From: a phage
Direction: 5' to 3' (one strand)
Length of the DNA stretch: 39,466 bases
Sequence record: PZ445457.1
Shown: one piece after another, positions 13,988-14,019 of the stretch
Layout of the letters: each line of letters begins with the position of its first letter
Numbering within the stretch: the stretch's first letter is position 1
The notes under the pieces: model-generated
What the model was told of the DNA's origin: nothing
Databases searched by the model: none
Seen by the model: only the letters and a program-made list of their open reading frames with translations
Program-made: the position numbers and the translations under genes

Positions 13988-14019
13988 GAGAGAGAGAGAG
14001 AGAGAGAGAGAGAGAGAGA
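13988..14019 (+). repeat. (GA)16 dinucleotide microsatellite, homopurine/homopyrimidine tract
   Basis: gagagagagagagagagagagagagagagaga read directly, in noncoding DNA upstream of the first promoters. Confidence 0.95.

Follow-up and report, generated by a model that had tools for sequence, protein, structure and literature searches.

A perfect run of 16 GA units just inside the left end of a T7-like phage genome raises three linked questions: whether a dinucleotide repeat of this length is a genuine part of the genome, how it came to lie where it does, and whether the phage makes any use of it. We addressed them by computational analysis of the whole 39,466-nt stretch of phage DNA in record PZ445457.1, hereafter the window, to which coordinates refer unless another genome is named.

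Identity and setting of the GA tract

Read directly from the sequence, positions 13988–14019 of the + strand are a perfect (GA)16 of 32 nt, flanked by gtaat and caagt. Tandem Repeats Finder returned the same interval with period 2, 16.0 copies, 100% matches and a score of 64, so that the extent given in an initial annotation of this DNA is confirmed by both routes. The purine strand is the + strand, which is also the coding-sense strand of the phage, and the tract corresponds to bases 456–487 of the mature genome. Dinucleotide runs in the window comprise 1206 of two units, 55 of three, three of four, one of five and one of 16, the runner-up in these 39.5 kb thus having five units against the 16 of the tract. 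With a tolerance of two mismatches, a (GA)8 probe gave 11 overlapping matches, all of them in or overlapping the tract, where dinucleotide-preserving shuffles led us to expect 0.08. The length of (GA)16 is therefore far above chance expectation, in line with the earlier view that such a repeat is unusual in a compact lytic phage; the accompanying statement that T7 has no counterpart agrees with the first 1300 bp of T7, which contain no dinucleotide run of four or more units. As a perfect head-to-tail iteration of a unit within the 1–6-bp range, extended well beyond chance, the tract is a microsatellite. Its + strand consists of purines only, and a perfect mirror repeat takes up 31 of the 32 nt, which gives the tract the symmetry of an H-palindrome (a homopurine/homopyrimidine mirror of ~20 bp or more).

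The window represents a T7-like phage of the genus Berlinvirus (Studiervirinae), circularly permuted and with one collapsed terminal repeat. Its nearest records are the Escherichia phages PhiV-1 and ErnstBeyeler, at ~93–94% identity over 24 kb. Similarly permuted deposits occur among the relatives (S523, SWJM-03, ErnstBeyeler and P151). The left end was mapped by transferring the annotated left ends of BA14, FE44, Kvp1 and ETEP21B onto the window by homology. The annotated repeats of BA14, FE44 and Kvp1 place the direct terminal repeat, a single collapsed copy of 193 bp, at 13533–13725 (+); the left genome end by homology is 13533, with the sequence beginning TCTCATAG, and a mature genome starting there would measure ~39,659 bp with both 193-bp repeats. 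At 13717–13733 (+) lies the concatemer-junction motif TGTGTCCCTATCTGT, the core of which is also found in T7 at about bases 153–167 and the counterpart of which is labelled ‘concatemeric junction’ in the BA14 annotation. Just beyond this motif, 14 bp past the terminal repeat, begins a tandem array of the 26-bp unit CTTTGAGTCATCACCTTATGTTTCCT, which is perfectly periodic over 112 bp at 13739–13850 (+; 4.3 copies) and reaches 4.8 copies, with mismatches, when followed to 13862.

The phage promoter consensus matched nine sites in the window, with none expected by chance, and these include phiOL and phiOR. The phiOL-type promoter TTATACGACTCACTAATGGGATA occupies 14078–14100 (+), with its +1 at the G at 14095, as mapped from BA14 phiOL and the ETEP21B promoter; the phiOR-type promoter lies at 12941–12963 (+), downstream of gene 19. 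A sigma-70 scan together with homology located three promoters for host RNA polymerase on the + strand, resembling A1 (14185–14221), A2 (14323–14359) and A3 (14417–14450), and the nearest gene on the right-hand side of the tract is gene 0.3 (14638–15096, +), which encodes an S-adenosylmethionine hydrolase of 152 aa. Within this map the terminal repeat and the 26-bp array end 262 and 137 bp, respectively, before the start of the tract; from its right-hand end, 58 bp separate it from position −17 of phiOL and ~165 bp from the −35 element of the A1-like promoter, both of which lie downstream. Its placement in the initial annotation, between the repeat array (13739–13850) and the first phage (14078–14100) and host-type (14185–14450) promoters, was accordingly correct.

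Two features of composition and signal content in the same region may be recorded here. The minus strand carries a leftward sigma-70-like promoter at 13629–13601, inside the terminal repeat (TTGACA, 17-nt spacer, TACCAT; 10 of 12 matches), which resembles the leftward A0 promoter annotated at position 224 of T7 but occupies a different place. In addition, the + strand of 13001–14000 is pyrimidine-rich (GC skew −0.11, AT skew −0.16), the rest of the genome having a purine-rich coding strand, and the GA tract forms a purine island within this pyrimidine-rich, structure-poor leader.

Readings of the tract as part of a gene, a structured RNA or a host promoter were considered and set aside. The sole ORF across it is a 49-aa ORF with a GTG start on the minus strand, which reads through (TC)n and is not credible as a hidden gene. 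Rfam gave no match at E ≤ 1 over 12800–14800, the RNA fold of 13700–14100 (400 nt) was less stable than those of shuffled sequences (z = +2.77) and the DNA fold of 13930–14080, the 150-nt spacer, was no better than those of shuffles (z = +1.44); a structured RNA is ruled out by these results. In the single-strand folds the GA tract neither formed a hairpin nor paired with the 26-bp array, which is pyrimidine-rich; triplexes are outside what such tools model. The sigma-70 scan found no promoter in the spacer, and by manual reading the TTGACT at 14029 is accompanied by a −10 match of only 3/6.

Length variation at the tract site and across the leader

The tract is borne by a conserved non-coding spacer (13930–14077) that is common to 14 Berlinvirus relatives, with a short run at the same position. 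The site reads (GA)4 in 11 of them (Kvp1, ETEP21B, S523, PhiV-1, CECAV_058, BP12A, P483, 285P, P151, SEqdws-315 and RN5i1), (GA)3 in SWJM-03 and (GA)5 in A7, and JSS1 has the interrupted run GAGAGGGA. The flanks are well conserved in all 14, and in the 13 with 3–5 units they are CAGTCTCTGAGTAAT to the left of (GA)n and CAAGTAGAAT to the right. Against a (GA)4 relative, the tract amounts to a clean, in-phase GA insertion of 24 bp, or +12 units. The pattern by which slippage is recognized, namely an orthologous short seed, differences in whole units and intact flanks, is thus present, with 13 relatives carrying 3–5 units. Length variation at this site had been suggested before and is borne out by the values of 3, 4 and 5 units in relatives and 16 here. 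The related proposal, that short fixed tracts in relatives would mark a neutral feature, held in part: relatives do share a short and nearly fixed seed, which is thus a conserved feature, whereas only this phage has gained 12 units.

Conservation of the spacer is not universal in the genus. It is missing from BA14 and FE44, and Berlin, Yep-phi and several other phages match its first 39 nt only; because BA14 and FE44, and apparently Berlin and Yep-phi, are without it, the spacer is dispensable. A stretch of ~90 bp around the tract behaves as an insertion/deletion polymorphism, being found in 14 relatives, not in BA14 or FE44 and apparently not in Berlin, Yep-phi and others. Where present, the spacer is well conserved, though non-coding. 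We rejected the idea that the tract is a conserved concatemer-junction or packaging element of the T7 group, as T7 has no counterpart, BA14 and FE44 lack the spacer and the tract stands 262 bp from the terminal repeat.

Searches for further alleles returned no intermediate or long form of the tract site in the phage collection, IMG/VR, metagenome contigs or genome contigs. In IMG/VR, an 18-mer from the left flank recovered only six isolates that were already known, all with 4–5 units, and a 16-mer from the right flank recovered no further orthologous locus. The left-flank 18-mer pattern had six matches in metagenome contigs, all of them chance and non-orthologous, and the right-flank 16-mer had 66 in genome contigs, in unrelated bacterial and archaeal assemblies, which is about the chance number for a 16-mer in 596 Gb. 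No near-identical isolate was found, and exact-protein look-ups of gp0.3, gp19 and gp19.5 gave no match. The corresponding look-up of the gp0.6-like protein gave one Logan contig with a differing upstream region. This contig (SRR22560134 contig 97, 1–513) combines an identical gp0.6-like protein with a gene 0.3 of ~81% DNA identity and an unrelated upstream leader, a mixture which indicates that Berlinvirus-like phages have exchanged early-region segments by mosaic recombination.

The expansion at the tract is accompanied by smaller ones nearby. A census of GA runs was obtained by aligning the rotated window to the whole PhiV-1 genome and counting alternating dinucleotide runs; gains in the leader were judged against CECAV_058, S523 and PhiV-1 at all four sites and against Kvp1 at three, those where its sequence is shared. 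In the interval from the terminal repeat to gene 0.3 the + strand has four GA runs of at least 5 nt, and each of them is longer here, by 1, 12, 1 and 1 units. The three minor ones, all on the + strand, are an AGAGAGA at 13944–13950, which has one GA unit more than any relative compared; a (GA)4 run at 14225–14232, just downstream of the A1-like promoter, which exceeds most relatives by one unit and of which SEqdws-315 has the longer form too; and an AGAGAGA at 14590–14596, upstream of gene 0.3, where all 8 relatives of this sequence type have one unit fewer. Elsewhere in the genome, none of four non-coding GA runs had changed, in contrast to the four of four that gained in the leader, and none of the 43 coding GA runs of at least 5 nt had gained a GA unit. 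Two-base changes show only in non-coding DNA because they are frameshifts in coding sequence. An apparent gain in a TC run at 15432 was dropped, being a T-to-C substitution and not slippage. The bias towards GA gain is specific to this lineage and to the leader region.

Other repeats of the genus leader vary in a comparable manner. At the start site of phiOL a separate GA seed reads (GA)9 in P483, (GA)5 in P151 and (GA)4 in A7, the rest having GAGA or GGGA; these runs lie at 1614–1631 of L012 (phage P483) and 594–603 of L223 (phage P151). Situated at the +1 of a phage promoter, (GA)9 might have an effect on initiation or on primer formation at the secondary origin. Copies of the 26-bp array number one in PhiV-1 and three or more in FE44, and most relatives have none. 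The array is a second copy-number expansion in the leader, and the perfect identity of its copies suggests that it is recent; should the assembly have used a k between 62 and 87, its copy number may be open to doubt. The GA runs and other repeats of the leader are thus recurrent sites of copy-number gain in the genus, with the present phage as the most extreme case.

Origin and possible effects of the tract

We consider it probable that the tract is a real, near-neutral and probably hypervariable expansion by slippage of the conserved short seed. The starting material would be the (GA)3–5 that Berlinvirus left ends conserve in a non-coding spacer they can do without, and repeated gains by replication slippage would have turned it into (GA)16; beginning with 8 bp, no fewer than three gains in succession would be needed to reach 16 units. 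With the tract being copied by a T7-type replisome, its length would be expected to vary within phage stocks, and most likely it has no adaptive role. The DNA and RNA polymerases of this phage are full-length close homologues of the T7 enzymes, and published in vitro data on T7 are for this reason a fair proxy. Murat et al. (PMC7441554) found that a polymerase alone yields repeat expansions and that T7 DNA polymerase is stalled by a single-stranded GA-repeat template, which adopts a quadruplex-type fold; in their discussion, short repeats are expected to gain units as long as they are below equilibrium length. Two observations sit less easily with this account. No alleles between 5 and 16 units occur in the databases searched, and the fact that four of four GA runs gained units in one lineage, with none losing any, could reflect, in place of neutral drift, a bias in direction or selection that favours a longer leader.

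The same data bear on whether the tract is real. A sequencing or assembly artefact would mean that the true tract is short, as in relatives, or that it exceeds 16 units and a collapsed k-mer loop gave it the wrong size. The window is an assembler product, a circularised assembly with one collapsed terminal repeat, and 32 nt equals k + 1 for k = 31, which by our own reasoning is one pass round the two-node GA/AG loop of a de Bruijn graph. Moreover, of 120 IMG/VR loci carrying at least (GA)16, 21 have the repeat no more than 150 nt from the end of the stored stretch, a hint of assembler trouble with such repeats. Although 32 = 31 + 1 fits k = 31, the perfectly periodic 112-bp array, with its repeated word of 86 nt, was resolved in the same assembly and lies beyond simple traversal at k = 31; collapse of a k = 31 loop was rejected as the main explanation on this ground. 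The lack of a terminal k-mer overlap in the assembly likewise argues against a simple k = 31 graph. A k, or read information, of at least 87 nt would span the whole 32-bp tract. Nor could an assembler have inflated a short allele to 32 bp, since the 8-bp (GA)4 forms no loop at any usual k. Sequence quality also appears sound, the major ORFs having canonical lengths (gp19, 586 aa; RNA polymerase, 882; DNA polymerase, 704; gp8, 533; gp10, 347; gp16, 1315), and the absence of unit gains from all 43 coding GA runs of at least 5 nt argues against a systematic error in GA context. Furthermore, the three +1 gains elsewhere in this leader and the (GA)9 of P483 indicate that changes of this type occur in the genus. 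We therefore regard an artefact as unlikely, while according it more weight than either of the selective explanations considered below.

If real, the expansion should have physical side-effects. The initial annotation had proposed that the tract could stall polymerases and thereby influence early transcription. Stalling as such accords with published in vitro work on T7 enzymes (PMC7441554, PMC3561996), but the early-transcription effect finds no support: the tract is upstream of phiOL (by 58 bp) and of the first host-type promoter (by ~165 bp), and as all early promoters are downstream and fire rightward, early transcripts never cross it. The only transcription able to do so is read-through from phiOR across the concatemer junction. 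During such read-through the purine strand would be the non-template strand, the orientation associated in vitro with weak blockage of the R-loop type. As a mirror repeat the tract would be able in principle to form H-DNA, and its GA strand, when serving as template, could stall a T7-type DNA polymerase.

These properties allow a functional explanation, in which the tract would have been selected as a roadblock that works in one orientation, by way of an R-loop or H-DNA, at a distance of 262 bp from the terminal repeat and its concatemer-junction pause site. There it would damp phiOR read-through into the early region of the next genome or slow leftward forks near the genome end, with tract length as a setting that might be tuned in the manner of a contingency locus. 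The orientation is suitable, the purine strand being non-template for rightward transcription from phiOR (12941–12963) as in the blocking arrangement of Belotserkovskii et al. (PMC3561996), whose experiments gave truncated T7 RNA polymerase products through R-loops at 32-nt homopurine non-template inserts. A GA template stalls T7 DNA polymerase (PMC7441554), and pausing of T7 RNA polymerase with lysozyme at the concatemer junction, reported to start packaging, is part of T7 maturation (PMC3276506), the junction motif being conserved here. That several repeats of the leader expanded together is likewise consistent with a roadblock. Against this, all relatives cope with 3–5 units or without the spacer, the sequence gives no link between the tract and any promoter, operator or ORF, and the site gives no sign of selection, the long form occurring in one phage and intermediates in none. 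Moreover, Belotserkovskii et al. (PMC3561996) describe blockage as weaker at lower G content and stronger with supercoiling or nicks, by which alternating GA should block less than a pure G run. By analogy with these systems a selected roadblock is conceivable, and we judge it improbable. Its most specific form seems very improbable, namely a phage contingency element close to the left end in which a hypermutable tract acts as an R-loop/H-DNA roadblock in one orientation; were it to exist, tract length would tune phiOR read-through past the junction pause site or the arrival of forks at the genome end, and a slippage-driven switch would be coupled to packaging or to early-gene timing.

Selection might instead have acted on the leader as a whole, for spacing or for genome length, with repeat expansion as the easiest way of adding DNA. 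Here 352 bp separate phiOL from the end of the terminal repeat, as against 158 in BA14, 225 in FE44, 245 in Kvp1 and 227 in T7, and the slippage-type changes between the terminal repeat and gene 0.3 are all gains, of ~78 bp in the array (relative to the single copy of PhiV-1), 24 bp in the tract and 2 bp at each of three further sites. The mature genome of ~39.66 kb, however, falls inside the 38.5–40.8 kb range of its relatives, and we know of no function in the T7 group that depends on the spacing between terminal repeat and phiOL. Gains are, in any case, the expected direction for short repeats under equilibrium length (PMC7441554). We give this explanation very little credence, and near-neutral slippage remains the preferred account of the tract.

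The tract among known repeat systems

As it stands, the finding is a curiosity in a leader marked by repeated gains of GA units. The tract could nonetheless be of practical use, possibly as a natural reporter of microsatellite instability in vivo under a T7-type replisome, with presumably little host mismatch repair, and as a marker for strain typing, and it is a caution for those who assemble and annotate phage termini. Greater importance would follow only if shortening of the tract altered packaging, read-through transcription or fitness. In kind, as a microsatellite and potential H-DNA mirror repeat, it belongs to a long-known class; what is unusual is its length for a phage. The maximum dinucleotide iteration in a survey of mycobacteriophages is 9 (PMC6426759), and the longest GA run among the Berlinvirus relatives is likewise of 9 units (P483). 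More than 120 IMG/VR stretches contain (GA)16 or longer, many of them from giant viruses, and none of these has DNA or protein similarity to the present phage. The tract is among the longest perfect dinucleotide repeats that we were able to document in a T7-like phage.

Its closest counterparts are the orthologous runs of other Berlinvirus genomes, which share its position, its flanks and the spacer upstream of phiOL and differ in length, with 3–5 units (6–10 bp) there and 16 (32 bp) here; the lengths from which slippage and non-B structures should begin to matter are well below the present one. The (GA)9 of P483 is an independent expansion of GA units in the non-coding leader of a Berlinvirus left end, ~80 bp from the orthologous tract site, but its seed is the GAGA of the initially transcribed sequence of phiOL, it is transcribed from that promoter and it has about half the length of the tract. 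The arrays adjoining the terminal repeat in the T7 group, to which the CCTTATG-type units and the 26-bp array belong here, lie in the same leader and also vary in copy number. They abut the terminal repeat and consist of units of 7–26 bp that occur group-wide, whereas the GA tract lies 137 bp beyond the array, consists of another motif and is absent from T7, BA14 and FE44.

Beyond phages of this type, bacterial contingency loci are likewise prone to slippage, and high-frequency length change is expected in both. Contingency repeats, however, sit in an ORF or within or next to a promoter, and as the tract lies in neither position we did not class it as a phase-variable contingency locus. With the H-DNA-forming (GA)n·(TC)n mirror repeats of plasmids and eukaryotic genomes the tract shares a perfect homopurine/homopyrimidine mirror of 32 bp, an insert length class that also figures in studies on T7 RNA polymerase blockage (PMC3561996, PMC4538819). 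Such structures depend on negative supercoiling or low pH, and the molecule that carries the present repeat is a linear phage genome or concatemer.
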